Positions 4,936 to 63,074 of a DNA stretch of 64,000 nucleotides are shown here, piece after piece. The notes beneath the pieces are model-generated. The model had not been told where the DNA came from. It saw only the letters and a program-made list of their open reading frames with translations, and ran no database searches. Where the stretch lies: NCBI GenBank assembly GCA_000165345.1, contig CM000435.1, positions 64,001 to 128,000 of the forward strand, given 5' to 3'. The translations under genes and the position numbers were made by a program. Numbering within the stretch: the stretch's first letter is position 1; every line of letters starts with the position of its first letter.

Positions 4936-5094
4936 TTAGCTCACAAAATATTATAGTAGACAATATTTTATAAGTTATGAAAAGTTTTAATAGCATGTCT
5001 AGTTATATTATTTTCAAAAAAAAAAAAAAACGCCGTTTTTACATTTCATTTTAACTTTTTTAATCATTCAATTTATATTTTGCCGGTATGCTTT

Positions 5095-5171
5095 ACTGCG
5101 CATGCATATTATTTAAAAAAATATTTACTACATGCGCATGTATGTGGACAGGTCAAAAAGTTGCATGCAAC
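5095..5171. promoter_or_regulatory. Cluster of GCATGC-type motifs (GCGCATGCATA, CATGCGCATGTATGTGGAC, TTGCATGCAAC) upstream of the LCCL gene
   Basis: Three GCATG(C) copies within 80 nt, 70-140 nt upstream of the ATG at 5239. Similar clusters at 12356-12437, 23695-23715, 30147-30425, 47325-47340 and 62467-62545, all 5' of genes. Confidence 0.55.
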
Positions 5172-5238
5172 AAATTTCTTAAAAAAACTTAATTAGAGCA
5201 GATTAGTAAAAAAGAGTAGGGAGTATTTTCTAGAAAAT

Positions 5239-13282: not shown

Positions 13283-14390
13283 TTGTAATGATGGATCTGG
13301 CATTGACTTCATCTTTTTTTTTTTTCTATTCAAACAATATAAATCTAAATAATTGGTTTTAAAATGTTTCTTCAAACCAAAGAACTTCTCTTTATTTACC
13401 TGAGTATTCTGGTAGTTCTGGTCTTGTAATTTCTAGAACTTAATTTTTTTTTTGTATATTCAATATGTATCTTATATACAAAAAAATTTAGACTTAATCT
13501 TGCCAATTATTTCCTTAAATAATACTTTAACACGTCTCAAAAATTTCCTTGTAATTCAATATTTTTAATAATATATTATTAACTTTATAACTTGTTGTTC
13601 ATAAATAATTCTATTGTATTTAATGGTTATTTCTTAACTATTATTTATTATTAAGGACCTTTGTCTCTCAGTCAATTACCGCCCAAAGACATTTGGCGCC
13701 ATGCCTCGAATGTTCATATTTATAATATATAAAAAGGCAACTCTTCAAATAATTAAAGGGATGAAATTACAAGTTTAAATTTCTTTCGTTTTTTCATTTT
13801 ATTCAATTTTTCACTTGATTATTCCTCATTGTTTACTTCTTTTGTGATATTATCTTTTGTTTTGTGCGCTTTATTCATTTTTGAAATGACACTTAATGGT
13901 AGAAGTAAGGTATAAAGAGGTACCATAGACATGAGAAACGTTATTTGTACTCTTATGTTTAGTTGATTAATATTTAGAAATAAATGCGGATTATGTTTGA
14001 TATTGCAACGAGATGAAAGTAAGGGTGGCTTTGATCCGTAATTTGCGCTAATTACTAGAATCGAGAATTACAATGGAGTGAACTTCAGTTAATAGTAAAT
14101 ACATCCGGCTCTACCTCCTATACCTTAGCTAATTAGATTTTTCGTTTAATTCATTTACTACAATACAAAGCTAAGTATTTTACGACCTATACACACAAAA
14201 TTGTTGTAACATTGCAAAAGTTCCTTGTCAATCTAGAAGATTAAATAACGTTCCGTAAAGTCCTTTCCTCTCTACTTCTCTCAAATATATATATGACTTA
14301 ATATAAACATTTCTTTAATAATTAACCTTATTTATTTTTTTTCGAAATTTCAAAAATTATTTAAAATACATGTTTCAAAATTCAATTCAG

Positions 14391-14403
14391 TTTTGGCGCC
14401 AAA
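14391..14403. promoter_or_regulatory. E2F-like motif TTTTGGCGCCAAA upstream of TM9SF (second copy TTTGGCGCCA at 13692-13701 in the same intergenic region)
   Basis: Exact palindromic GGCGCC core with T/A flanks, about 230 nt upstream of the ATG at 14628. Further instances at 32440-32455 (GTTTTGGCGCCAAAAC), 61446-61457 (TTTTGGCGCCAA) and 23764-23775 (imperfect). Confidence 0.6.
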
Positions 14404-18885: not shown

Positions 18886-19212
18886 TTATTATGTGAGAAT
18901 ACTGAAGGCTCTCAAATCTGGGAAACACTATAAGTAGATTTAACAATAATGATAATATTAAGAATGAGAAAGGTTCTAAAGATATTTTTTTTCAAGTGGG
19001 GAAAATAGGTGTCAACAAAATCAGTTCCTAAAGGAATATTTCAAAGCCAATACTCTAGGAACAATTTATTTGTCGTAACCTTAATCAGTCTAATCTCTAT
19101 ATTCCTCACCTTTATAACGCACTAAATCACCTCTTTTCTTACAAATCATTATTCCTTAATATAATTATTAGTGAGCACTAAATGGCGGCACAATTCTAGC
19201 GCCACTAACATG

Positions 19213-20337: not shown

Positions 20338-20540
20338 CTTCAAAATATATTCAAATCTCTAAAATCTATAGAGACTTTAATTCTCTTTAAATTCCACTCC
20401 TATATCTTATTTTCTTCAGTTATTTCATTTAGATTCATTATTTTTAATTAGATTGCTTGTAATAGAAATTCCAAAAAATGTGTGCCAGCCCGCCAAAACC
20501 AAACCATTATAAATACAACATAAATAGTATAAACTGCATT

Positions 20541-23558: not shown

Positions 23559-24606
23559 AACTAAGGTTGTAAGAGGAACTCCTGTTGCCCTTCATTTTTG
23601 AATTAACTAGGACTAGTCATATTAAGTAATAAACTTTTTTTCAAGAAAATTTTTTTATCTTGCAAATTTTCTCTCAGGGTCTTGTCCACATAAATTCTCG
23701 TGCATGCATTTCATGCAAACTGACTTATGTGGGTTGCATGGCTTTCTCAACGGTATATGACACTTTTGGGCGCCACACACAGTATGTGGAATATGAGCGC
23801 GTTAGTCAGAATTAATAATGTTTTTTGTGGTGGGTGAAAATAGACTAGAGAATTACGTAATACTGAACAGAATTAATATAGCATTATAAAAATGTGTGTG
23901 AGACGCAGTGTTTGGTCTAAATAATTGCAGTCTTGATTGTGAAGGAAAAGAATACAAAACTGAGGGGGGTGGGGAAAGGTAAATTTTACACATACAACTA
24001 ACTCCAATAAATACATATATACATGTATATGTACATATATATGTATACATATATATGTACATATAATATTCAGAGAGAGGAAAACGGTGAGTTTGGAGTA
24101 AAATAGGCAAGATAATAAAGGTATTTGTTTTCAATTCTGTCTAAAGTTACCGTTTTTTGCTCTGGGTTTAAGAATTAATTGTTGAGCTATAAGCAAATTA
24201 CCTCATTGATGAAAGTTTAAGAGGATAGAAGAAGAAATCGAACATATTTTTATCCCAGAAAAAAAGTAGATTAGTGATTATTTGTCAGAGTTATAATCAT
24301 ACAGCTTTTGAAAAAAGAATCAGGTAAATAATGCAACATAAGTAAAATTTGAAGTTACTAATTAAAAACTTTTGGATTAAAAATTATATGAATTTTATTG
24401 CTCTTTCAAGTAATACCAGCAAATATATTTAAATAAAATATCATATTTTCGTTTATTAAGGGCGATCTCTATAGTTTTTTAAATACAGATATTGGGGGAA
24501 ATACTCATTCGGAGATTCCCGTTAACAGTTAAAATATTTCGATATATACTAACTATTACAGGCTTTAAATCATATTCACTTGTCAAAGCCGCAAGAATAT
24601 AGAGAA

Positions 24607-26442
24607 ATGGCATCAATATTATCAAGTTTCTCCTCTCAATATAATGAACTATGGAAAGCAATCATAAGACCTCCAAGAGACAGATATAGTATTCGTGATT
24701 TAGGCCCAATGCGTTTTGCAATTGGAAAGTCAATATTTAAGAGATCAGACTTCACTCTAAGAAATCGTCGCTTCCAAGCTCTTCATTGCAGTCATTTTGA
24801 GCCTATTGATAATGAAAGGCAATCTGAGTCTCTTCCTTGCGTAATTTACCTTCACGGAAATTGCAGTTCAAGGAGAGAGGCTCTTCCATATATTCCGTTA
24901 CTTCTTCCAATCGGAATTACTGTTATGGCTGTCGATTTGAGTGGTTCTGGTCTCTCTGATGGAGATTATATAAGTTTGGGATACCACGAAAAAGATGATC
25001 TTTCAGTCTTGGTTGAATACTTAAGAAATTCAAAACGATGTAGCTCTGTTGGGGTTTGGGGGAGGTCCATGGGAGCTGCTACTGCATTAATGTACTCAGG
25101 AGTTGATAAGGGTGATGGATTCTTAAAAGGGATTGTCATCGATTCAAGCTTTTGCAGTCTTCGCCAGTTATGCCATGAGTTGGTTCATCATTATATCCCA
25201 TTATTACCCAATTTTCTTGTTGATTCTGCACTTTCATTTATCAAATCTACAATTAATGATAAAGCAAAGGTTAATATTGACGATATTGCTCCAATTAAGT
25301 CTGTTGGTCAATGCAAGGTCCCTGCTTTGTTTATTTCTGGAACTAATGATACATTGGTTAATCCAAATCATTCAAAAACTTTACATGATAACTATGCTGG
25401 AGAGAAGATGCTTATGATCATCCCCGGTAATCACAATTCTGAGAGACCCAAGTTTGTTAAGGCATCGATCGTCATTTTCTTTTATACAGTATTTGATTGC
25501 TTCAATATTCCAAAATCTGCAGATGCTTTGAGGTCTTTTATAAATACGGACTTGAACCTTCTATTCAACTATGATGGACTGTATTGCGATGAAAATGGTA
25601 GAATTCCAAAGCCAATCACTCAATCTTTTTATGCTATTCAGCAATACATAAGGCACAAAACTACTAACAATGTCTCTGCTCCTATTAATAATGGATTACA
25701 AAAGAAGAATCTTGGATTTAGTAAGGAACATCTGAGAAGAGAAGACATGATTAGATCGAGTTCGAATGAATCTTTCAATGACCAAAGTCAAGGCAAAGGA
25801 ATCCAAATGCGTCCTCCAGATGTTGACAAATACATTGATCGTATGATTCCTTTAAGCAGTGAAAATATTAAGCAATCTTCATCTACAATATATTCTACTG
25901 GTGCTTCATGCTCCAGAAGTACTACTTTTGAGACTATTAGCCAGGGGTTTGAGAGGGGTGACACAATGAATACTGTAAGTTCTTTTGAGGAATTTAAAGA
26001 TACTTTTAGCCCTGTAACACAGCCAAATAGGCCATCAGGTGCAGAAAGCGGTATTGAAGAGAGGGTAGTTGGGGCTGAATTTGGGTCAGACCATTTAGAA
26101 GGAATAGTTCATTATCAAATCTCTCCTCCACCTGGAATGAAGCATGCTAACAATAATAATAGTGATAATCAACAACAGTATTTTAACCAGAATCAAAATA
26201 TTCATCAACATTCTCCTTCGTACCACCCGTATGGTCTTAACCAGAAGGGGGTTACTTATACTAATGGTGCCATAAGTAATGGAGCTAATAGTTTATTGCT
26301 TTCTACTGGAGGACTTGCTCCTTCAACTATAGGTATGAGCTCAGTTCAGCATCAGGCGCCAACAGGAGAGGGAGTCAAAAAACCAAGTATTGCTTCAAGT
26401 TTACCAAAAAGGGTAGCTAATTATAACTACCCTGGGAATTAA
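24607..26442 (+). CDS. Alpha/beta-hydrolase fold protein (ABHD/BAAT-like serine hydrolase) with long low-complexity C-terminal tail
   Basis: The tracked ORF starts at a TTG (24580). The first ATG at 24607 gives MASILSSF... Nucleophile elbow GRSMGA (GxSxG), then Asp and His candidates (TNDTLVNP..., PGNHNS). N/S/Q-rich C-terminal region of about 250 aa. Confidence 0.7.
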   Translation: MASILSSFSSQYNELWKAIIRPPRDRYSIRDLGPMRFAIGKSIFKRSDFTLRNRRFQALHCSHFEPIDNERQSESLPCVIYLHGNCSSRREALPYIPLLLPIGITVMAVDLSGSGLSDGDYISLGYHEKDDLSVLVEYLRNSKRCSSVGVWGRSMGAATALMYSGVDKGDGFLKGIVIDSSFCSLRQLCHELVHHYIPLLPNFLVDSALSFIKSTINDKAKVNIDDIAPIKSVGQCKVPALFISGTNDTLVNPNHSKTLHDNYAGEKMLMIIPGNHNSERPKFVKASIVIFFYTVFDCFNIPKSADALRSFINTDLNLLFNYDGLYCDENGRIPKPITQSFYAIQQYIRHKTTNNVSAPINNGLQKKNLGFSKEHLRREDMIRSSSNESFNDQSQGKGIQMRPPDVDKYIDRMIPLSSENIKQSSSTIYSTGASCSRSTTFETISQGFERGDTMNTVSSFEEFKDTFSPVTQPNRPSGAESGIEERVVGAEFGSDHLEGIVHYQISPPPGMKHANNNNSDNQQQYFNQNQNIHQHSPSYHPYGLNQKGVTYTNGAISNGANSLLLSTGGLAPSTIGMSSVQHQAPTGEGVKKPSIASSLPKRVANYNYPGN

Positions 26443-26844
26443 CTTAACTTAATTAGAGTTTTTCTTAACTTTTTTTTGATGTTCTTGCGATTAGACTTCA
26501 AATGGGTTTTTGAAAATTATTCAAAGCTATTGAAATTGGGGTCTAATTGGCAACTTTCTAAGCGTTAATTATATGGATAGTTGTTTCAATACTATTAATA
26601 GCGAGATGAGCGGTGTTAGTGATTTGTGTTTTTTTCTTATTTTTAGATTTGTGATTTTAATGATTTTATTGGGCTCAGTGTGATTAGGAGATGTTGCTGT
26701 AGAGGGGAGGGGGGTTTGTGTAAGTGGATTTTTTGTTTGTGACGGAAAAAATTACGGGAGAGGAAAAAATAGAGGAAGAAAAGAAATAGAGGTTAGGCTT
26801 ATAGTGAATAAAATGTAAATAGGAATTAGGGTTTATAACAGTAA

Positions 26845-29817: not shown

Positions 29818-30315
29818 GAAACTACGTAAAGTACCTTGCTAAAAGATTTAGTTATATTTAATTGTTTGAATTAGAGCGGCTCCTCCTTTTATTTATTTAA
29901 TATTGTTTATATATTACAATTAATTCGGAATCCCATTAAATGAGAGTATTGCGACTATTAGGGGGGGAAAATAGGATAAGAGCTGATTATTAATCATACA
30001 TTTCATGACAAAATAGAATAACTTCTCGTAATTATTCGATAGTATGTTGTATTTTAGCAAATTCAGAAATATTTATTATTTTTTTTAGCTCAATTTGGAT
30101 TATAGAAAAAAAAGACAACCCGCCAAAATTTGGAAAATTAATATTGCATGCAGAATGTGAATAGCCAGAATAACAGAAATATTGGAAGTTATCATATTTT
30201 TAATATCCAGATTGTTTTTTAAATAAATTTCAGTAGGTATGACGGAATTAAAAATTAAAATCTGGTTCAAAATCTGAACAATTTTGAGTGTTAATAGTTA
30301 TATTATTTCATTAAA

Positions 30316-31709: not shown

Positions 31710-32499
31710 TGAATATTAGATTTACTCCACGCCTGAAGATATAATAATTCTGTTACTAATATCATCATCAAAAAGGATGAGAAGAATCTAAGATTTCCAT
31801 TTTTTTTTTCTAAAAATGTATGTGTTGTTGTATTTAAATGCGTTAAATACACCATTTTCATTTTTTTTTCTAAATAAAATAAAATAAAATTTATTATTTG
31901 GTGGAATGGCATTTCAATATTTTATTTATTTATCGCTTTCACTAAAATTCAAAATCTAGGATAATAAAGGGATTTGATGGTGGAATTACGTGTAATAATT
32001 ATTTCAATGAGTACTACATTTTTTCTTTCATAACTTAAAGTAAGTTGGAGTAATTTGGCACATCCAAAGTCTTAAATAAAGCTATGAAATACACCATCAA
32101 AATTACATATTTAATTTTTACTTTAATGATAAAAAAAAATAATAATAAATAATAGTGTGAAATTTCTCTCAAAACTAAAAGACTACCAATAATAATCCAA
32201 ATTTTAGTCATTAGTTTAAAAAAAAATCTTTCACCATTTCGCTAGTTTGATTTTATTGGGCTTGATTTTCATGCTTAATTTCTATTTAAATCATTATCAT
32301 ATTCGTTAATCATCTCTTGTTGTTTTATATTTAAATATATTCGAATTCAAAGTTTAATATAGATGGAACAGATTAATTGATTCTTCATTAAATTCTGCAT
32401 GCATTCTTACATGCAAAATGTAATTGAATTAATAGGTCAAGTTTTGGCGCCAAAACATTTTTTTATTCTTTTTTTCTTTAATAAAAAAAAAAAATAAAA

Positions 32500-33717: not shown

Positions 33718-34520
33718 TATTTCTCAAGTTTGGTAATACTGTTATCTTTTTTTTTTTTTTTGTTTTAAATTTTCAATGATTTATTAATTTCTTCTTGAAT
33801 TAGGGATTAATCGGGAATTATTTACTTCTTTATCAAATGAAATACTTATGTAAAAACTAAATTCTGAATTAATGGAAATATTAAACTAGATTTATTATAT
33901 TCAACTTTATTTTCAATATATTTATTTTAATAATATCATCCATTTTCTCTATTAAAATTTTAAATTTATCTTATTCATTGTAAATTATATTATCCAAAAG
34001 AAAAGAAAATAACGACAAAGCATTAATAACTTCATCACCTAGCTAACTGAGATATTTGCATAATCACTCTTCTCACTAATCAAGTTTTTTTTTTTGTATT
34101 ATAAAACAATAACCCAATGCAATAATTACAATATTACTATCACTTTAATTGTTATATCTTAGGCATAAATATATAAAGATATTATTTTATAATAAATTGA
34201 CTGGACCAATGATTCAATTCAACTTTAATTAAATTATAGGTGAATTCAAATATCTAATAATCATTAACCCAGTTTCTTACTTCTGATTTTTTTTTTCATC
34301 AAATTAAATTTGGTTTAATATATCTTAAATATTATATTCTATAGTTATATTCACTAATGATAATGTTATTGAATTAATTTCAATTCTTTTGAATAAATAA
34401 ATAAATAAATATATATATATATTATATTTATTTATTCATTCATATATATGTTAAGTGTGTCAAATGATATATCAATATTTTCATTATATTATCAACATCA
34501 CTTTTGTTCTATTATTATTA

Positions 34521-34606
<86 letters not shown>

Positions 34607-35422
34607 ATATATATATAATATTATTTATATAATTTTTCCTTATTGCAGTTTTTTTTGTATATTAAATTTTCTTTTTTCTTATTAATGTACTATTATAAAT
34701 ATTTAATTATATTGGTGAATATTATTACCAACCAGTTATTATTAATATTATTATTTTATTTTCAATCTAATTTGTCCAAAAGCAATTATATAATTATTAA
34801 AATCTTAATTATTCCTTTCCAAATAACGATAATTTTACCCCTATAAATATCAAAACAAAAAAATTTTCTTTATTTCTTTAAATCTAAAATAAAATAATAA
34901 TTTTCAGAAAAATTAATTTTTTTTTCTATTTAATATTTTTGTTAGACATATTATATTATGCCTAAGTTACACACACGCATAGTAAATATTAAGTACAGGA
35001 AACCACTAGTTATTATTTTGGAAATTTCCATTTTTGTTTGTAATTTTTTGGTGGAACATTTTTTTAAAAAAATTATTTCATCAATTATAATAATATAGGA
35101 TTTTTTTTTACTACTTTATAATAGAGAAAGATAGGAAGTAAAGAAAAAAAAAAAAAAAGAATTACATGATTTATTTATTAAAAATAAAAGACCGCCCTCC
35201 ACAATAGTAATTAATATATAAATTAAAATTTGAAAATATATATTTGCATGAATTGCGCGCCTCTATTAGAAAAAGCGTTCTAGCGCCAAATTATTGGAAA
35301 AGTAAATAATTACTGTTAATTGTACACGTAATAGTAGTAATTATTATTATTACTGTCACTATTATCATTATCACTATCATTATCATTCTTTTACTTTTTA
35401 AAAACTATATTAGCTAAATCAA

Positions 35423-41551: not shown

Positions 41552-42360
41552 CTTCAAAAAAGTGATAAGAAGAAGAAAAAAAAAAAAAAGAAGAAATAAA
41601 AGAAAAAGAATAAGTGGAGGAAGAGGAATATGAATAAGAAGAAGATGAAGAAGATGAAGAAGAAGAAGAAATATAAATCTCTAACTCACATTAATTAAAA
41701 ATATAAAATGATAATTTTCCATTCAAATCCCTAAAAACTCTTTTTCACTTTTAATATGTATCCAAAAATATTAGATTTATATCTATTTTAAATACTAGTA
41801 ATCTGGATATCAAATATTATATATATTTTCACCATTAAATAAAATATATTTAAATATTCATTAATATATCATTAATATACCAAACTTTTATTTAATATCT
41901 AAAAAATAATTTTTTACTTTTTTTTTTTTTTTTATAATATAATTTTTTTTTTATATAATACATTACCGGTATACAAGAAATAAATTTATGATTAATTGTG
42001 CAGCAGATTACCGCCAAACACGTGTTATATTGATTATCTCATTTTAAAAACAAATAATATAAATAATGAAAAAAACGAATAAAAGGATTAAATGAGTAAA
42101 GTGAATACAATATTTATAGAAAACAATAATATTTTAAATAATTGTATTTGAATGAAAAATTGTTAAACTCTTGTTTGGATTTCAGTTACTTTAAATTATT
42201 AAGGTGGAAAAAAAACAAAGAAAAAAAGTTAAGTTAAAAAAAAAAAAAAATAATCTATTAAAACAATTTTAAAGATCCAAGATAAAATAAAATTATTAAT
42301 TAATAATACAATATTTAATTTATTTGATTTCTAATTTCTTATTTCAATAAAAAAAAAATT

Positions 42361-45186: not shown

Positions 45187-45210
45187 ATGGCGGCAGAATT
45201 CTGCCGCCAT
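45187..45210. promoter_or_regulatory. Perfect 24-bp palindrome ATGGCGGCAGAATTCTGCCGCCAT (paired GGCGGCA/E2F-like half-sites) in the divergent RIO2/CDP-DAG-synthase promoter
   Basis: The sequence equals its own reverse complement. Related imperfect copy ATGGCGGCACAATTCTAGCGCCAC at 19182-19205, upstream of GRASP. Confidence 0.6.
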
Positions 45211-47054: not shown

Positions 47055-47960
47055 ATTTTACTTTTAACTTCAATTTTTCTCTTTAACTCATATATTTTTT
47101 CTATTTTCCTTTCATTTATTGAAATTAATATAAATATTTCTAAGAGATTATTAATAATTAACCAAATCTTTGAAAAAAAGGGGAAAATCTATCTTTTTCT
47201 TTATTTCATCATCTTTTATGTACTAATTACTTTTTTTACCATTTTCCCCACCCTCCTTACATGCATTTTCTCCCCTTAAGTCCATTCTATTTAATAGTCT
47301 TCCACATAAATAAATAATTACGTCATTTATTGCATGCATGCATTTAATTACGTGTTTTAAAGTTATATTTTAAAATATATTACAAAAAATTATTTAATTA
47401 TTATTATACTTGAAAATTTCTTTTTTTCTTTCTTTATTAAATAATTTTAAATTGTAATGAAATATTTAAAAAATATTAATTTTAGTATAATTTTGTATTT
47501 GAACTTGACTGTGATTTGAAAAAAAAAAATCATTTATATTATTATTATAATTATTTTTTAACCAATATTAAATTATTATGTGCATTATAATAAAATTAAC
47601 GCAATTCTCCCGCTAAAATTGTTATATTGATTGACTGGTAATTTGGTTATCGAGACAATTTTAATAATACTTTCAAACTTGTTTAATAATAATATTTTGA
47701 ATTACTAGGAATATTATATTAAAATAATTCAGAATCACCATACTTTTTATTTTTTAACAATTTGATAAAAAAGATCATCTTTTTTTTTCTTCGAATTATC
47801 AACAATTCAAGACGAACTCCGAACTTAAAATTAATTTAGCCATAAATTATCGAAGGAAACCTCAATCAATTAAAAATAACTACTTTATCTTTTTAATTAA
47901 TATAATGATTTTTAATTTTAACAAATTATTTGATAACGGATATAAAATTGGTAACAAAAA

Positions 47961-51836: not shown

Positions 51837-52450
51837 ACCAGTAATTAAAACCATGGCCTTGAATGTTATTTTATCTATTGGAAAATTATATTTACTCGTT
51901 AAGCTTGTTTTAAATAACATTCTCTATACATAAAATAATCCAATAAAATTTGGAAAGCAAATAAAAGTTTTGTATTGAAAACTTTTTTTTTGGTTTGATA
52001 ATAAAATTTAACTTGAGAATTTTGGATTCAACTTGTGCTTTTTGGGTTTTTGTATATTTAATTTGAATTTATCTTTTTGTAGAAAACTCCTAAATTAATA
52101 ACATTAGTAAACTTATTTGATTTAGCTTTGTAAAGTATTCTTTTATTTTCATAAGACTCTTTCCATATAAAGATGAATTTTTAAATAGAAAAAAATAAAC
52201 AAAACTCTAAATTTCTAATACTTGATTAATTCCTAATGAATAAAATGGTTAAAAAAGTCAACACAGACTAATGCATTGCGCGCCTTCCATGTGGACGCGC
52301 ATGCAAAAACTTTTTAGAGCACATGCGGAAACGCCAGTAAAAAAAAAGGAAAATCAGTACCGGTGTAAACGTGTGAAAACAAATAAACTAAAAACTTGAT
52401 TGCATGCAAAAAATTCCAATAAAATTATGAATTTGGAGCATTTAAATTAT

Positions 52451-53401
52451 TTAAAGATTAAGGCTTTTTAAGTCTTGGACAAGGTTTTGAATAGATTCAA
52501 CTGATTTAGAAAATAATGATTTTTCGTCATCAGATAAATTTACAATAACAACGTCTTCAATACCATTTTTTCCAATAACAACAGGAACACCGACAAAAAG
52601 ATTGTTAACATTATACTGGCCAGTAAGATATGTTGAACAAACTAATACTGATTTAGAATCTTTCAAATAAGCTTGAGCCATAGCTACAGCTGAAGCGGCT
52701 GGAGCATAGAATGCTGAGCCAGTTTTTAAAAGTTCAACAATTTCACCGCCACCAAATGCTGTCTTCTTAATAATTTCATTGATTTGTGAATGAGTAATTT
52801 TTCCTTGCTCAACAAAATCACTAAGCAGAATTCCACCAATTGTAACTGAACTAGTTAATGGTATCATCTCATCTCCATGGCCACCTACAACAATGGCTGA
52901 TACATCAGATGGCTTTACACCTAATGCTCGACTTAAATTACATCTGAACCTAGCGGAATCAAGCACACCTGACATACCACAAACTTTATTAGCTGGTATT
53001 CCACTCTTTTCTTTAAAGTAGTAAACCATCGCATCTAGAGGATTAGTAATACATATTACAAATGCATTAGGGCAGTATTTACCGACATTTTCTGCAACTG
53101 AACCAACAATCTTTGCATTAACAGTAAGTAAATCTGAACGTGTCATATTTGGTTTTCTAGGAACTCCAGCTGTTATTATGACGACATCAGAGTTTTGTAA
53201 ATACTCATAGTTATTTTCACCAAATATTTTCGCTGGTGACCCAATCAATGCCATGCAGTGATTCAAATCTAAAGCTTTTCCTTGTGGAACTCCCTCAATA
53301 ATATCAAACATATAAACATCTCCTAAATCTTTTTGTCCTAAAAGAAGTGCTATAGTTGAGCCAATTTGTCCAGCTCCAATAATTGAAATTTTCTTTCTCA
53401 T
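52451..53401 (-). CDS. MDH: Malate dehydrogenase (LDH-like MDH, Arg at substrate-specificity position)
   Basis: 316 aa. IGAGQIGST Rossmann motif. AGVPRKPNMTRSDLL loop with Arg at the position equivalent to residue 102. Catalytic GGHGDEM. Paralogous to the adjacent gene over its full length. Confidence 0.85.
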   Translation of the reverse strand: MRKKISIIGAGQIGSTIALLLGQKDLGDVYMFDIIEGVPQGKALDLNHCMALIGSPAKIFGENNYEYLQNSDVVIITAGVPRKPNMTRSDLLTVNAKIVGSVAENVGKYCPNAFVICITNPLDAMVYYFKEKSGIPANKVCGMSGVLDSARFRCNLSRALGVKPSDVSAIVVGGHGDEMIPLTSSVTIGGILLSDFVEQGKITHSQINEIIKKTAFGGGEIVELLKTGSAFYAPAASAVAMAQAYLKDSKSVLVCSTYLTGQYNVNNLFVGVPVVIGKNGIEDVVIVNLSDDEKSLFSKSVESIQNLVQDLKSLNL

Positions 53402-53819
53402 AATTACAGTATTATATTTATAACTTATTTTTTTTAATTATATCAATAGAATTTCTCTATTTTATTGTGATCTATTTTCTTTTTCCCCTACTTAGCTTTT
53501 AAGATACTCATTTCCCACGCAATTATTACCTAAAACGAGGGGCGTAACAAATTCAAATAGCAGGCGGGAAATTTGAACAGCTAATGGCGCGGCAACAAGT
53601 GCAAATTCATGCAACATTTGAAAGAAAATGAGAATAGAATAATACGCATTAAGTTTTTTTTTCTATTTTTTACTAGTAATTAATCCCGAAAACCCACATG
53701 CAATAATCTCAATCAGCCATCTCATACAATAAATGAAAGTTGGATGAGAGAATTTTTTTACATTTTTTGAATTACAGGATATCGCAAACAATATCTTATT
53801 GAAATAAGAAAAAATATTC

Positions 53820-54785
53820 TTATGCTCCAGCAGCTGGTGCATTATCCAACACCTTGGAAATAGTGTTGACTTCATTAATTGATTCCCCAAGAAGCTTCTG
53901 TTCTAGTGGAGTTAAGTCCAATTCGAGAATGTCCTCAACACCATTCTTTCCAATAATTGTTGGAACACCCATGTATATACCCTTTACACCATAATGGTTG
54001 GAGCAGAATGCAGAACATGGAACAACTGCCTTCTTGTCCTTTAGGTAAGCTTCAGCCATCTTAACAGCAGCAGCGGCTGGTGCAAAGTAGGCAGTTCCTG
54101 TCTTTAAGTTATCAGCAACTTCCTTCCATGCTATTCTGGTATGGCACACAATCTCATCAATTTGTTCCTGGGTGATAAGACCTTGCTTAATGAAGGATGA
54201 AAGAGGAACACCACCAACCGAAACTGAACTAGTAACTGGTACCATACCATCGCCATGGCCACCAATAACGTTGGCACTAACATCAGAAGCATTAACGCCA
54301 AAATGTTGTGCAATGAATGTTCTAAATCTAGATGAATCTAATACACCTGCCATACCACAAACTTTGTTATGTGGAAGCCCAGAAACCTTTTGGAAGTGTG
54401 AAACCATAACATCTAATGGGTTTGTGATACAGATGACAAAGGCATTTGGACAGTATTTCTTAACACCTTCGGCAACTGAATCCAAAATACGAGCATTTCC
54501 GAATAAGAGTTCAGAACGATCATCTTTTGGACGACCTGGAATGGAGGCTGTGATAATAACTACATCAGAGCCTGATATATCAGCATAATCATTTGTGCCG
54601 ATAACCTTTGATGTGGAACCAAACATTACCATAGAGTGGGTAATATCTAGTGCTTTTCCTTGTGGAATGCCTTCTGCAATATCAAAAAGTACTACATCGG
54701 CTAAATTGTCTTTACCTACAATATATGCAATATTACCTCCAATTTGTCCTGACCCAATAACGGCAATCTTGCGTCTTTCAATCAT
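53820..54785 (-). CDS. LDH: L-lactate dehydrogenase (MDH-derived paralog with Gly at substrate-specificity position)
   Basis: The tracked ORF starts at a TTG (54824). The ATG at 54783-54785 gives MIERRKIAVIGSGQIGGNIA (321 aa). Loop ASIPGRPKDDRSELL has Gly where the MDH has Arg. GGHGDGM. Tandem to the MDH on the same strand. Confidence 0.85.
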   Translation of the reverse strand: MIERRKIAVIGSGQIGGNIAYIVGKDNLADVVLFDIAEGIPQGKALDITHSMVMFGSTSKVIGTNDYADISGSDVVIITASIPGRPKDDRSELLFGNARILDSVAEGVKKYCPNAFVICITNPLDVMVSHFQKVSGLPHNKVCGMAGVLDSSRFRTFIAQHFGVNASDVSANVIGGHGDGMVPVTSSVSVGGVPLSSFIKQGLITQEQIDEIVCHTRIAWKEVADNLKTGTAYFAPAAAAVKMAEAYLKDKKAVVPCSAFCSNHYGVKGIYMGVPTIIGKNGVEDILELDLTPLEQKLLGESINEVNTISKVLDNAPAAGA

Positions 54786-55675
54786 CTTTAATATAAAAAA
54801 AATAAATAAATGCTTTGAAAACAAAAATTCGCTTTAATTAAACTTAATTAAATAATAGTGATTCTTATCTCTTTTTTTGTCCTCTAATAATTATACATGT
54901 GTGGATTTCTGTACGCAAAAAAATATCTTTAATATCCATAATATTTTTATTATTTAAATTTATCTTTAATTAGGTATGCTTACGTTACTAGGCGGGCATC
55001 ATGTTTTGTTTATTTTAGATTTTTTTTTATTCAAAAATACCATATTTTTTTCTGGAATCTCATTCTTTAAATATAATTCCAAGAAATTATCAATGTTAAT
55101 TCAACTAACCCTACTGACTAGCTTGCTTGCTTGCAGTTTACATTATTTATATACCCTTCGATATCAAAATTTTGATTATCTTAAAGCTAATTGTGATAGC
55201 TTATCCACCCCTTTACCCCTCTAATTATAAGATTTTAATTCTTAATTATTGCATGTAAATACCGGTATGCAATTTTTGCAAAAATAGTCGTATTATTATT
55301 TTTTATATTTTGCATCAATTTTTTTTTCTTTTTAAATAAAAATTGTCCACATTAAATTTTTAAATTACGTGTGAATTTATCAAAAAAATATATATTTTAT
55401 TTCACGGATTCTTGAAATTATGAAATAAAAATTAGGAATAATTTATAAGAACGTAGAAATAATAATAATAATACTAATACACAAGCTATTTGAATGTTAA
55501 AGTATTTTTCAAAATTTAACTGAATTTAATAATTTTGAAAAATATTTTGCAAGTAAATATTTGAGCGCACAGATATAATTAAAAACAAAAAATTAAAAGT
55601 GAAAAATAATTAACTTTTTTTTTTTTTAATCGTTATCAAGGGAATTAAAAGTGGAATATAGATATTTTTATCAAA

Positions 55676-56373: not shown

Positions 56374-58104
56374 TTAATCTTTACTAATAAATAAAAGTTT
56401 AATATTATCGATAAATTTGTCATCATATTTCCTTCTAATTTCAAGAAGCCATTGCTCAGCTTTAATTTTTATTTCATCTTGTAATGATTTAAAATAATTG
56501 GTAATATTGAAATGAATTTCATTATCCATAATAATATCTATTAGAATAAAAGTTAAAAGTTCCAAACATGGTTGTTTAAGGTTTGGTATAGAAAATGGGA
56601 ATACAAATGTATCAAGTATTCTATAAATTGTGAATACCAATAATTTAGTATGAAATATCCATTCTATTGAGGTAATGTATCCTGAAATATTATCTTTTAA
56701 TACGTTTCTTCTGTCAATTTGAATAATATCAAATTCATTATTTTTATTATTTTCTTTATTAGATTCTTCTTTTTCGTTATTTTTGCCCTGTTCTACAATA
56801 CACTTAGATTTAATTAAATCTCTAGTTTCTTCAGAAATAAGAGACGTTAGTAAATCCAAAACAACGACTTCTGGTGATAAGTTATCATAAAACTGTGTCA
56901 TTAAGAGAACATAGTCTTGAACAGCACCGTTTTTCTTATGTTTCTTTCCAGAACAATCTTTCTTGTCTTCATTCTTATCTACTTGTTCTTCCTCTTTCTC
57001 TTCATTCTCTTCCTCATCACCTTCATCCTCGTCCTCATAGTCATCCTCATCATCTTCACTAATATCATGCAATACTTGCATCATATCCTGGTATGTATAT
57101 TCTGGGTCATCTAATTCTTCTAAGCTATCCAAATTATCCAGTTTTTTTCCATCTACAGAATTTTCTTTGCCTCTATCTTGGAGGCTCTCAGAAGAAGGCT
57201 TATGATTTTTGATACTTAATTCATTAGACTCCGAAGATCTAGTAGGCTCTGATTCTTCAATATCTAAGTAATCAAAATGTTTGACAATTTGATCAAATTT
57301 GTATTGAGTATTGTTCCTCCTGAAGGTTTTAATACTGTTTAAAAGGCTTGAAAGTTCAGCATGTCCTTTGGTGTTTTCTACTTTATTTGTTTCTACTTTC
57401 TTTAAATTTATCATTTTCTGGTCTTTATCTGTAGACATTTGAGAATTATCAAAAGTGTCATTTGTAGGGATTTTGCTTTGTGAGAAACTTAATGTGTTAA
57501 CCATCCCAATATCTTCATTTTCTACCTTCTCCAGATGTTTCTCTTTTTCCTGCTGCTTCTCCTTTTCTTCGTTTTTCTTGTTTTCACAGTCAATCTTCAT
57601 CTCCTCATTCTTAAAAACATTGTCCTTATCATTCTGTTCTTCATTTTGATATAAGCCTAACCACTTTTGGATTTCGATCAATGCATCAGTTCTAAGGTGA
57701 GGATGAGTCTCAGAGAGTGAAATGGAAAGATCCAAGTACAAGTAATAGCAATTTGTTGAACAAAAAAGACTCAAAATTGATCTCTCAATTATATTACCTG
57801 ATCTCTTATCCAATGCCCACTTACTCTTTAAATTGTTAGAAGATCCTCCTGAAATCCCTACTTGGCACTGAATCCAACCACATTTACTTTTATCAGATCT
57901 TTCAATTGATATTTCTTCCAAATCGCATGGTCTCAAAAATGATTGTATCTTCAGTATTACGTCATCATCCAACCTTCCATGATTATCTATCAATCTTTCC
58001 TGGAATTTTAGAGATATTAAGTTGCTATTTTCTATATTTTTAACATGTTTCTCTATTAACTCCTTTCTAAGCTTTTCCTTGAATAACCTTGAGTTATTAG
58101 GCAT
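56374..58104 (-). CDS. Rtr1/RPAP2-like protein (RNA Pol II CTD phosphatase family zinc finger), acidic C-terminal half
   Basis: 576 aa with ATG at 58102-58104. The N-terminal region CGWIQCQ...x27...LFCSTNCYYLY fits the Rtr1/RPAP2 zf pattern (C-x4-C...C-x3-C, compare yeast CGYPLC...FCSNFCY). Followed by E/D/K-rich low complexity. Confidence 0.55.
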   Translation of the reverse strand: MPNNSRLFKEKLRKELIEKHVKNIENSNLISLKFQERLIDNHGRLDDDVILKIQSFLRPCDLEEISIERSDKSKCGWIQCQVGISGGSSNNLKSKWALDKRSGNIIERSILSLFCSTNCYYLYLDLSISLSETHPHLRTDALIEIQKWLGLYQNEEQNDKDNVFKNEEMKIDCENKKNEEKEKQQEKEKHLEKVENEDIGMVNTLSFSQSKIPTNDTFDNSQMSTDKDQKMINLKKVETNKVENTKGHAELSSLLNSIKTFRRNNTQYKFDQIVKHFDYLDIEESEPTRSSESNELSIKNHKPSSESLQDRGKENSVDGKKLDNLDSLEELDDPEYTYQDMMQVLHDISEDDEDDYEDEDEGDEEENEEKEEEQVDKNEDKKDCSGKKHKKNGAVQDYVLLMTQFYDNLSPEVVVLDLLTSLISEETRDLIKSKCIVEQGKNNEKEESNKENNKNNEFDIIQIDRRNVLKDNISGYITSIEWIFHTKLLVFTIYRILDTFVFPFSIPNLKQPCLELLTFILIDIIMDNEIHFNITNYFKSLQDEIKIKAEQWLLEIRRKYDDKFIDNIKLLFISKD

Positions 58105-58253: not shown

Positions 58254-58269
58254 TTGGCGCCGGCGCCAA
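58254..58269. promoter_or_regulatory. Double E2F-like palindrome TTGGCGCCGGCGCCAA in the divergent RPAP2-like/RPC11 promoter
   Basis: Two overlapping GGCGCC cores form a 16-bp perfect palindrome 48 nt upstream of the RPC11 ATG. Confidence 0.6.
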
Positions 58270-58316
58270 TTTCCTATTTTGACATTTTTTTTTTGAAAAT
58301 TAATATATTATGGAGA

Positions 58317-61252: not shown

Positions 61253-61814
61253 CTTTCAAGATACAGTCTCGACTATTCCTTACTCTTTCTCTTTTTAGGT
61301 AACTTCTTGTGTGAAATAGTTTTCTTATCAATACCAAAATGTATATTTTATACTATATTCTCATTTCTATTCCTTTCCCTTTACTCAAATATATCTTTTT
61401 TTCTCCCCTCCTAATAATCAAATTTAGCCTTTTAAATATGGTATCTTTTGGCGCCAATTTGGAGAATACCTAGTTTTTAATATATTTATTTATAAATATT
61501 AATAATAGTGAATAAATAAATTATAATAACTATCATTATTGTTAATATAATATATTATATTTATATATAAAGTAGCTGCATAATACCCATAAAGCCAAGC
61601 ATTACTTTCAAGCTGTTTTTAATTTACACACTTATATCCCATACAGAACAAGTTTGTTATAACCTATTCAAGTTTCTTGTTTTAGATTTGATTTGACTCA
61701 TAGCTTTAGTTACAAGAGATAAAGTTTCAAGCTTAATATTAAATAATTGACCATACACTGACCATTTATTTCCTCTTCTTTTGAACAAATTCAAGTTTAA
61801 TATAAACCCCAAAA

Positions 61815-62383: not shown

Positions 62384-63074
62384 ATTTAATTCCCACACTT
62401 TTTAAAAGTTATGTACATATATATTTATATAAATATATATATTCCTTCTGCTCACAATACATCATATTATTTGCATGCATTTTGTTCATGCGGGATGCCA
62501 CTTCTACAACATTTCGAGCATAACATTTTTTTTTGCATGCATTCCACATGAATTATTATTAATTAGTATATAAATTAATTGATGCCACGTAATAATTACG
62601 TCATTTTAATATATATTTTTTTTTAATAATATGAATTTTATTTCCAATTTTTTTACTAAATTTTTTTTAAAACTATTTATGAGAATTAAGAATATGGTTA
62701 CAACTAATTTATTATATTTAAATGATTCGGGTGGGATTTAAATTCTGGCTAATTAATTAAAATTCAGCTAGATTTTTTGGACATAAATATTTACAAACAA
62801 AAAATTTATCAAAGTTAAACATGACATTTCTCCTATACCGGAATAATCACATGTGTGTGGCGCTTAAATTAATTTAATTGGGAAAAAACATTCTTTGAAT
62901 ATAAAACCAATTTTTTAAAGTAAATATAATATATTGAAACAATATTAAGTACATAATTATATTTATAAAAGTTAGAGATTAGAAAAAATAAGTAAAAAAA
63001 AAGGTAATAGTCGGCAAAGAGACTTGTAACAATAATTATATTTGAGCTATGCAGTAAAATTATTGTAATTATAA

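Follow-up and report, generated by a model that had tools for sequence, protein, structure and literature searches.

The GGCGCC palindromes of this 64-kb stretch of DNA (the window) are the already well-described 'E2F' motif of Cryptosporidium parvum, which marks most promoters and no special cell-cycle set of genes. Sites of this kind are distributed non-randomly, lie mostly in 5' intergenic DNA, are indifferent to orientation and are conserved among related species, and the E2F-like element in the window is real, functional and already known. A preliminary description of the window, made from the letters alone, had correctly rediscovered this motif, and its functional reading was over-specific. 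Our analyses add no new kind of element and correct the interpretation of the sites as a cell-cycle regulon. As an independent 64-kb sample compared with up to eight Cryptosporidium species, they confirm that nearly every promoter has the E2F-like element as a selected feature, and they lend support to the published view that a small number of E2F/DP factors are responsible for much of the basal transcription in this parasite.

Abundance and position of the motif in the window

The window derives from C. parvum chromosome 7 and extends from about cgd7_300 to cgd7_540. The source organism was recognized as Cryptosporidium from the RPAP2-like protein (56374-58104, minus), which showed 100% identity to the C. 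parvum Iowa II protein, and from the gene order, which agreed with cgd7_320 to cgd7_510. The window has 30% G+C, densely spaced genes and rare introns, and its non-coding share amounts to 28% (17.8 kb) with 24% G+C. Published identifiers in the window include cgd7_320 (RPL18A), cgd7_330 (TM9SF), cgd7_420 (SNF2), cgd7_450 (CDS1), cgd7_500 (RPAP2) and cgd7_510 (RPC11, RNA polymerase III subunit C11). The gene labels of the preliminary description agreed with Pfam scans; prefoldin-4 and the ATG16-like gene, both small genes with introns, were placed only via gene calls in orthologous loci. A promoter was judged throughout the window from its location with respect to start codons. The possibility that RPL18A has a 5' exon across the site at 13695 was also considered and rejected, since the 185-aa ORF is complete and agrees with the C. 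ubiquitum gene call. Scans of the whole window with Rfam (gathering thresholds) and for tRNAs gave no match, so the long site-carrying gaps are without a known RNA gene.

GGCGCC was observed eight times in the window against 0.65 expected from dinucleotide-preserving shuffles (0 of 100 shuffles reached eight), and seven of the eight copies were located in non-coding DNA. The word GGCGCCAA was counted nine times in non-coding DNA, where a second-order Markov model predicted 0.14 copies, and in an unbiased k-mer scan of the same DNA it was outranked among non-repetitive words only by the TGCATGCA family. Non-coding hexamers composed of G and C only (36 possible) were nearly all of the E2F type, with GGCGGG present eight times, GGCGCC seven, GCGGGC five, GGCGCG three and GGCGGC three, and composition-matched words such as GGCCGC or CCGGGG had zero copies in the non-coding DNA of the window. 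There is a negligible probability that the sites are an artefact of composition or chance, or that they represent RNA hairpins in 5' UTRs instead of a DNA site. Chance is excluded by the shuffles and the Markov models. The doubled palindrome of 16 nt at 58254-58269 could fold once transcribed, with z-scores of -1.65 and -2.17; these values are unremarkable, and the hairpin reading was therefore rejected. Furthermore, a single GGCGCC cannot fold into a hairpin, the sites act in both orientations and also between divergent genes, and no compensatory changes were found among the aligned species.

When the wider E2F-like family was defined as GGCGSS, SGCGCS and TGGCGS on both strands, at least one site was present in all nine divergent gaps, in seven of 10 tandem gaps and in two of nine convergent gaps. 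The divergent gaps contained 13 sites (0.75 expected) and the tandem gaps 10 (1.0 expected), giving 23 sites in the 5' gaps together against approximately 1.8 expected; coding DNA, with 10 sites against 6.6 expected, was not enriched. Upstream enrichment of the motif was thus confirmed within the window. The 5' gaps that had no E2F-like site were 4936-5238, 26443-26844 and 47055-47960. The earlier statement that palindromes decorate almost every 5' intergenic region not only holds but also falls short of the full pattern, since the asymmetric members (GGCGGG/CCCGCC) had been overlooked (2328, 2702, 12016, 20489, 21176, 30119, 42011, 53563, and 54991); a copy within a coding region, at 26355, had been overlooked as well.

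All sites quoted in the preliminary description were recovered, at coordinates that differed by 0-5 nt. Four of the five sites called exact palindromes deserve the name (58254, 14392, 32441, and 61448), the first of them as an exact doubled palindrome of 16 nt, and the fifth, at 13692, reads TTTGGCGCCAtg and is palindromic only over the 8-mer TGGCGCCA. Those called imperfect copies (19182, 23764, 35282, and 45187) are all present as well, but 19182 and 45187 are not degraded copies, since each consists of an inverted pair of GGCGGC/GCGCC half-sites exactly 8 nt apart. The distance of 50-400 nt from start codons applied to most sites, with the exception of those at 23769 (833 nt), 35283 (1566 nt) and 32446, which lies in a 3'/3' gap. 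The proposed match to the E2F/DP-type element reported for Cryptosporidium was borne out by the [C/G]GCGC[G/C] core and the T/A flanks, the element being published as TGGCGCCA (PMC3734150, PMC12246861). The window sites agree with the published definition of the C. parvum motif, namely a [C/G]GCGC[G/C] or GGCGGG core and typically TGGCGCCA. The canonical form with T-rich and A-rich flanks, TTTSSCGC, occurs nine times in the window, eight of them in non-coding DNA, and the paired GGCGGC sites fit this flank criterion more poorly. The positions of the sites, together with their counterparts in related species, are listed in Table 1.

Table 1. E2F-like sites, accompanying words and selected genes of the window, with counterparts in other Cryptosporidium species.
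Position	Sequence or gene	Setting	Counterpart in other species
13692..13701	TTTGGCGCCA	383 nt upstream of RPL18A (cgd7_320, minus) ATG	orthologous ATG at 379 nt in C. ubiquitum, at 344 nt in C. bovis
14391..14403	TTTTGGCGCCAAA (14392-14403 = TTTGGCGCCAAA)	228 nt upstream of TM9SF (cgd7_330) ATG	TGGCGCCAA at the equivalent position in C. ubiquitum and C. bovis
19183..19204	TGGCGGC-ACAATTCT-AGCGCCA	8-nt spacer; ~300 nt upstream of GRASP ATG	C. ubiquitum GGCGGC-N8-GGCGCC, other spacer sequence
20489..20498	CCCGCCAAAA	divergent gap, 374-aa gene (unknown) and ATG16-like gene	identical in C. ubiquitum
23764..23776	TTTTGGGCGCCAC	tandem gap, BiP and alpha/beta hydrolase; 833 nt to hydrolase ATG	GGCGCCA likewise in C. 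ubiquitum and C. bovis
26355..26362	GGCGCCAA	3' end of hydrolase coding region; ATG of the next gene 485 nt downstream; sole coding GGCGCC in the window	E2F-like site in the equivalent intergenic gap instead
30119..30128	CCCGCCAAAA (other strand TTTTGGCGGG)	divergent gap, AAA-domain gene and 347-aa gene (unknown)	kept in C. canis; TGGCGCG in C. bovis
32441..32456	GTTTTGGCGCCAAAAC	16-nt palindrome; 49 nt downstream of OST-HTH/OHA stop, 790-bp 3'/3' gap	
35256..35290	CGCGCC (35256) and AGCGCCAAAT (35283)	just past SNF2/SHPRH stop, 1.7-kb gap upstream of OHA gene	at this offset, two E2F-like sites in C. canis, one in C. felis
42011..42018	CCGCCAAA (other strand TTTGGCGG)	divergent gap, SNF2 and kinase gene	TTTGGCGG(G) or TGGCGCCAAA in the corresponding position of C. 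canis, C. felis, C. bovis
45187..45210	ATGGCGGCAGAATTCTGCCGCCAT = GGCGGC-N8-GCCGCC	perfect 24-nt palindrome; divergent RIO2/CDS1 gap (336, 493 nt to ATGs)	C. canis GGCGGG-N8-CCCGCC; C. felis GGCGGC-N8-GCCGCC; spacing constant, spacer sequence varies
52451-53401	MDH (cgd7_470)		
53563..53591	GGCGGGAAA and TGGCGCG	162-184 nt upstream of MDH (cgd7_470) ATG	CCCGCC kept in 7 species
53820-54785	LDH (cgd7_480)		
54991..54997	GGCGGGC (other strand CCCGCC)	206 nt upstream of LDH (cgd7_480) ATG	CCCGCCTAGTAACG kept in 7 species
58104	RPAP2 (cgd7_500) ATG	minus strand	
58254..58269	TTGGCGCCGGCGCCAA	doubled E2F-like site, 16-nt perfect palindrome; 212-bp divergent gap RPAP2-RPC11	see text
58317	RPC11 (cgd7_510) ATG	plus strand	
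61446..61457	TTTTGGCGCCAA (61448-61457 = TTGGCGCCAA)	divergent gap; PPWD1 ATG 198 nt, prefoldin-4 ATG ~360 nt	TGGCGCCAA at the matching position in 7 of 7 species with DNA covering the gap (C. parvum included)
62858..62864	TGGCGCT	212 nt upstream of PIG-U ATG	GCGCCAC(A/G)CACATG kept in 4 species
2341, 5162, 12364, 12430, 23701, 30145, 30393, 32396, 47331-47342, 52401, 62472, 62534; 17218	TGCATGCA	17218 coding	
12393, 30406, 31985, 35325, 44972, 47347, 55364, 62586	ATTACGTG / CACGTAAT	all intergenic	

Conservation and identity of the element

The syntenic RPAP2/RPC11 locus was compared in C. parvum and seven other Cryptosporidium genomes via RPAP2 orthologues, and further loci were taken via the TM9SF and SNF2 orthologues. 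Identity inside the C. parvum motifs was 0.89 in C. ubiquitum versus 0.65 in other intergenic DNA, and 0.79 versus 0.39 in C. canis; in each case none of 2000 permutations by circular shift attained the observed value. The corresponding values were 0.36 versus 0.41 in C. bovis and 0.43 versus 0.36 in C. felis, where the intergenic alignments are at noise level; since global intergenic alignment with these two species was too noisy, alignment-free counts in 5' gaps were used, which gave 19 sites against 2.4 expected in C. bovis and 12 against 4.3 expected in C. felis, the latter at the edge of the shuffle range. The 5'-gap enrichment is common to C. ubiquitum, C. bovis and C. canis and weaker in C. 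felis. Conservation of the motif and its enrichment across species indicate purifying selection on the elements across the sampled species, which are of the intestinal clade, and the element is functional as judged by this test of conservation.

The element may be described as a double-stranded-DNA site for a dimeric factor, with a core of [C/G]GCGC[G/C] or GGCGG and flanks that are usually T-rich and A-rich. The palindromic form, the use of both orientations and the divergent position fit a dimeric DNA-binding protein, and a single site of the TTGGCGCCAA form, being fully symmetric, could serve both genes of a divergent pair. We consider it very likely that the sites are the Cryptosporidium E2F-like general promoter element and that the dimeric factor is, most probably, E2F/DP. 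By analogy with E2F4-DP2, the putative binders would be the parasite's E2F/DP winged-helix heterodimers placed on the symmetric core. The element would be general and orientation-independent, marking the nucleosome-free 5' ends of most transcription units, bidirectional promoters included, and E2F/DP would hold these promoters open or active; an activating as opposed to a repressing role is presumed here.

Published work on C. parvum describes the same element. The name 'E2F' was given in 2013 to the motif 5'-TGGCGCCA-3', the most over-represented upstream motif in C. parvum (PMC3734150), and its published forms are TGGCGCCA / [A/T][C/G]GCGC[G/C][A/T] and GGCGGG (motif 3 / motif 4 of Oberstaller 2013). 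The motif was over-represented in the non-coding DNA of chromosome 6 according to Bankier 2003, as cited in PMC3734150. A GGCG-core motif was found upstream of glycolysis genes, including LDH cgd7_480 (Mullapudi 2007, PMC1779779), and this LDH motif is the window site at 54991. Additionally, the E2F motif was detected upstream of many antisense lncRNAs (PMC7840661) and was the top motif of ATAC-seq peaks from sporozoites, where it coincides with open chromatin at transcript 5' ends; bidirectional promoters account for more than half of these peaks (bioRxiv 10.1101/2025.01.17.633476). The window sites share organism, words and upstream location with the published motif, and nothing essential is different. 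What goes beyond Mullapudi 2007, Oberstaller 2013 and Xiao 2025 is the deep cross-species conservation, the conserved doubled core and the N8-spaced inverted pairs; the earlier cross-species comparison of the motif concerned C. hominis only, which is approximately 95% identical (PMC1779779).

C. parvum has two E2F genes (cgd1_1560 and cgd6_1430) and two DP genes (cgd7_3650 and cgd8_1850), all located outside the window (bioRxiv 10.1101/2025.01.17.633476, PMC12246861), and the binding of Cryptosporidium E2F/DP to the motif is itself an inference in the literature (PMC12246861). The sites might accordingly be real cis-elements bound by a factor other than E2F/DP, such as a C2H2 zinc-finger or another GC-box-type protein, with which the heterogeneity of the family (GGCGCC palindromes, GGCGGG and ATGGCGGC-N8 pairs) would be compatible; 27 C2H2 proteins are listed for C. 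parvum. We give this alternative a low probability, since the palindromic core with T/A flanks is best fitted by E2F/DP. Moreover, Cryptosporidium is the only apicomplexan genus from which the retention of E2F/DP and the presence of the motif have been reported (PMC3734150, PMC12246861). The ATGGCGGC half-sites in particular resemble a YY1-type site; against another factor, however, neither C. canis nor C. felis has kept the ATGG flank of the paired sites.

The remaining question concerns what an E2F/DP site means for the flanked genes. The preliminary description took the flanked genes to share cell-cycle-type regulation; in this reading the sites would mark a cell-cycle regulon, a gene set that canonical E2F control switches on together at a defined phase. 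Several points agree with this: the core fits the E2F consensus of animals and plants; transcripts of E2F and DP reach their maximum early in asexual development (bioRxiv 10.1101/2025.01.17.633476, PMC12246861); and GGCGGG is found 288 nt upstream of the ATG of the Rad21 cohesin gene, a classical E2F target elsewhere. However, the cell-cycle reading fails because a motif of such wide occurrence cannot delimit a regulon: E2F-like motifs were reported as over-represented upstream of 161 of 200 expression clusters, with peaks at any of seven time points (PMC4117751). The seven flanked genes that were located among the listed entries of Table S2 of the published 72-h time course, namely cgd7_320, 330, 420, 450, 470, 500, and 510, belong to clusters 4, 127, 10, 66, 45, 80, and 85, respectively, a different cluster for each of the seven, so that the shared regulation proposed for them is not supported by these tables, in which cgd7_500 and cgd7_510 both appear. 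The 2013 data already point to an equal spread of expression timing in genes with and without the motif. Even the divergent pairs RPL18A/TM9SF and RPAP2/RPC11 are each split between clusters. Since 200 clusters are a fine partition, separate clusters may still share similar profiles; ribosome-biogenesis genes are found in both 80 and 85, the clusters of RPAP2 and RPC11. The flanked genes are, in addition, housekeeping genes (ribosomal protein, BiP, LDH/MDH, RIO2, CDS1, and a Pol III subunit), and neither an Rb homologue nor more than a few E2F partner proteins have been reported in the genome (PMC3734150). On this evidence a cell-cycle regulon is unlikely, and a general promoter element remains the preferred interpretation.

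The canonical animal and plant E2F/DP site is TTTSSCGC, for which an E2F4-DP2-DNA structure exists (Zheng et al. 1999, as cited in PMC3734150). Like this site, the Cryptosporidium element has a symmetric CG-rich 6-bp core, T-rich/A-rich flanks and a promoter location. Unlike it, the Cryptosporidium motif occurs at most promoters and not at a G1/S set, has no reported Rb-family partner, takes mainly the fully palindromic TTGGCGCCAA form in the window, and also serves bidirectional promoters, within a genome whose gaps measure approximately 0.5 kb.

Doubled and paired sites

The 12-nt core of the doubled site between RPAP2 and RPC11, GGCGCCGGCGCC, was unchanged in six of the eight genomes (C. 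parvum, C. meleagridis, chipmunk genotype I, C. ubiquitum, C. canis, and the Logan assembly); C. felis had GGCGCGCGCGCC and C. bovis one TGGCGCCAA only. In the seven-species alignment of the RPC11-RPAP2 gap, whose mean column identity was 58%, the doubled core formed the longest invariant block. In this site two cores abut, and a T/A flank is present only on the outward-facing side of each, which suggests two oppositely oriented registers for binding, offset by 6 bp. The site is located 151 bp from the RPAP2 ATG and 50 bp from the RPC11 ATG and probably acts as a bidirectional promoter element for both genes. A point against E2F/DP as the best explanation is that a distance of 6 bp between cores may not leave room for simultaneous binding by two heterodimers. 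The conserved sites of Table 1 provide candidates for binding work, and the 212-bp RPAP2/RPC11 gap with its doubled site is a compact candidate for a reporter.

A GTCA block at 58277-58284 (minus-strand TGTCAAAA), on the RPC11 side and approximately 12 nt from the doubled site, was likewise invariant in seven species. As a recurrent motif TGTCAAAA was rejected, with eight copies in the window against 7.4 expected, and it was therefore treated as locus-specific; the block may be a feature of the RPC11 start site or 5' UTR. Besides, an out-of-frame ATG is present at 58310-58312, 7 nt upstream of the RPC11 start, and it is shared by C. meleagridis and not by chipmunk genotype I.

Inverted pairs with an 8-nt spacer recur at GRASP/374-aa gene, at RIO2/CDS1 and, in C. 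felis, at MDH/LDH. GGCGGS-N8-SCCGCC pairs in the loci of relatives were located at L008:14562-14581, L010:6800-6819, L011:6588-6607, and L005:10563-10582. Considered as a rule, the exact 8-nt spacing would rest on too small a sample. That the arrangement of the cores, abutting in GGCGCCGGCGCC and as GGCGGS-N8-SCCGCC at two or three loci, amounts to a conserved promoter grammar is a tentative idea that we regard as rather doubtful; if true, E2F/DP would be expected to occupy both cores, cooperatively or in opposite orientations, with one dimer for each divergent gene. Promoters of viral and cellular genes also contain paired or inverted E2F sites, examples being the early E2 promoter of adenovirus and that of E2F1. 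The inverted close cores at 58254-58269, 19183-19204, and 45187-45210 resemble these promoters and differ from them in their hexamer-core spacings of 0 and 8 nt. We know of no cooperativity factor in Cryptosporidium.

The 24-nt palindrome was also considered as a CGG-N10-CCG site of the Zn2Cys6 type. Factors of this type are fungal, and the reading was dropped, the second half-site at 19199 being CGC. Adjoining the RIO2/CDS1 palindrome, the segment 45211-45240 (GTGATGCAT-A-GGTACCGATAAT) is nearly identical to its C. canis counterpart (L010:6820-6850), with diverged surroundings.

Convergent gaps and accompanying words

The published ApiAP2 'AP2_1' motif TGCATGCA was present 14 times in the window against 0.72 expected, and 13 of the copies were non-coding, an enrichment above that of the E2F-like motif. 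Of the three 5' gaps that have no E2F-like site, two contain it, at 5162 (upstream of the LCCL gene) and at 47331/47335 (upstream of the P-type ATPase). Two convergent gaps contained an E2F-like site together with TGCATGCA: in 32396-32456 the sites at 32446 and 32396 are 50 nt apart, and in 52279-52408 the site at 52279 is accompanied by TGCATGCA at 52401. The order and spacing of GGCGCC and TGCATGCA in the first pair are kept in C. canis (L010:17710-17850), and a search of the 3'/3' gap 31710-32499 by tblastx and blastn against three species revealed no conserved ORF. A pair that is kept where no ORF is conserved fits a non-coding promoter, as generally described in PMC7840661, and the pair at 32396-32456 probably serves as promoter for a transcript that is unannotated and likely non-coding. 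More broadly, the presence of both elements suggests that both 3'/3' pairs are promoters of unannotated, possibly antisense non-coding transcripts, and we flag these two gaps as possible unannotated promoters.

The gap between SNF2 and the OHA/LOTUS gene (33718-35422), with its E2F-like sites by the SNF2 stop, is unusually long, at 1.7 kb, with 17% G+C and low complexity; its counterparts measure 1166 bp in C. canis and 155 bp in a C. felis gene call. Such a length points to an extended 5' UTR, to an exon that was missed or to expansion of AT-rich DNA in C. parvum. Finally, the words ATTACGTG / CACGTAAT were observed eight times in the window against 0.64 expected, and four of the copies lie within approximately 60 bp of TGCATGCA.
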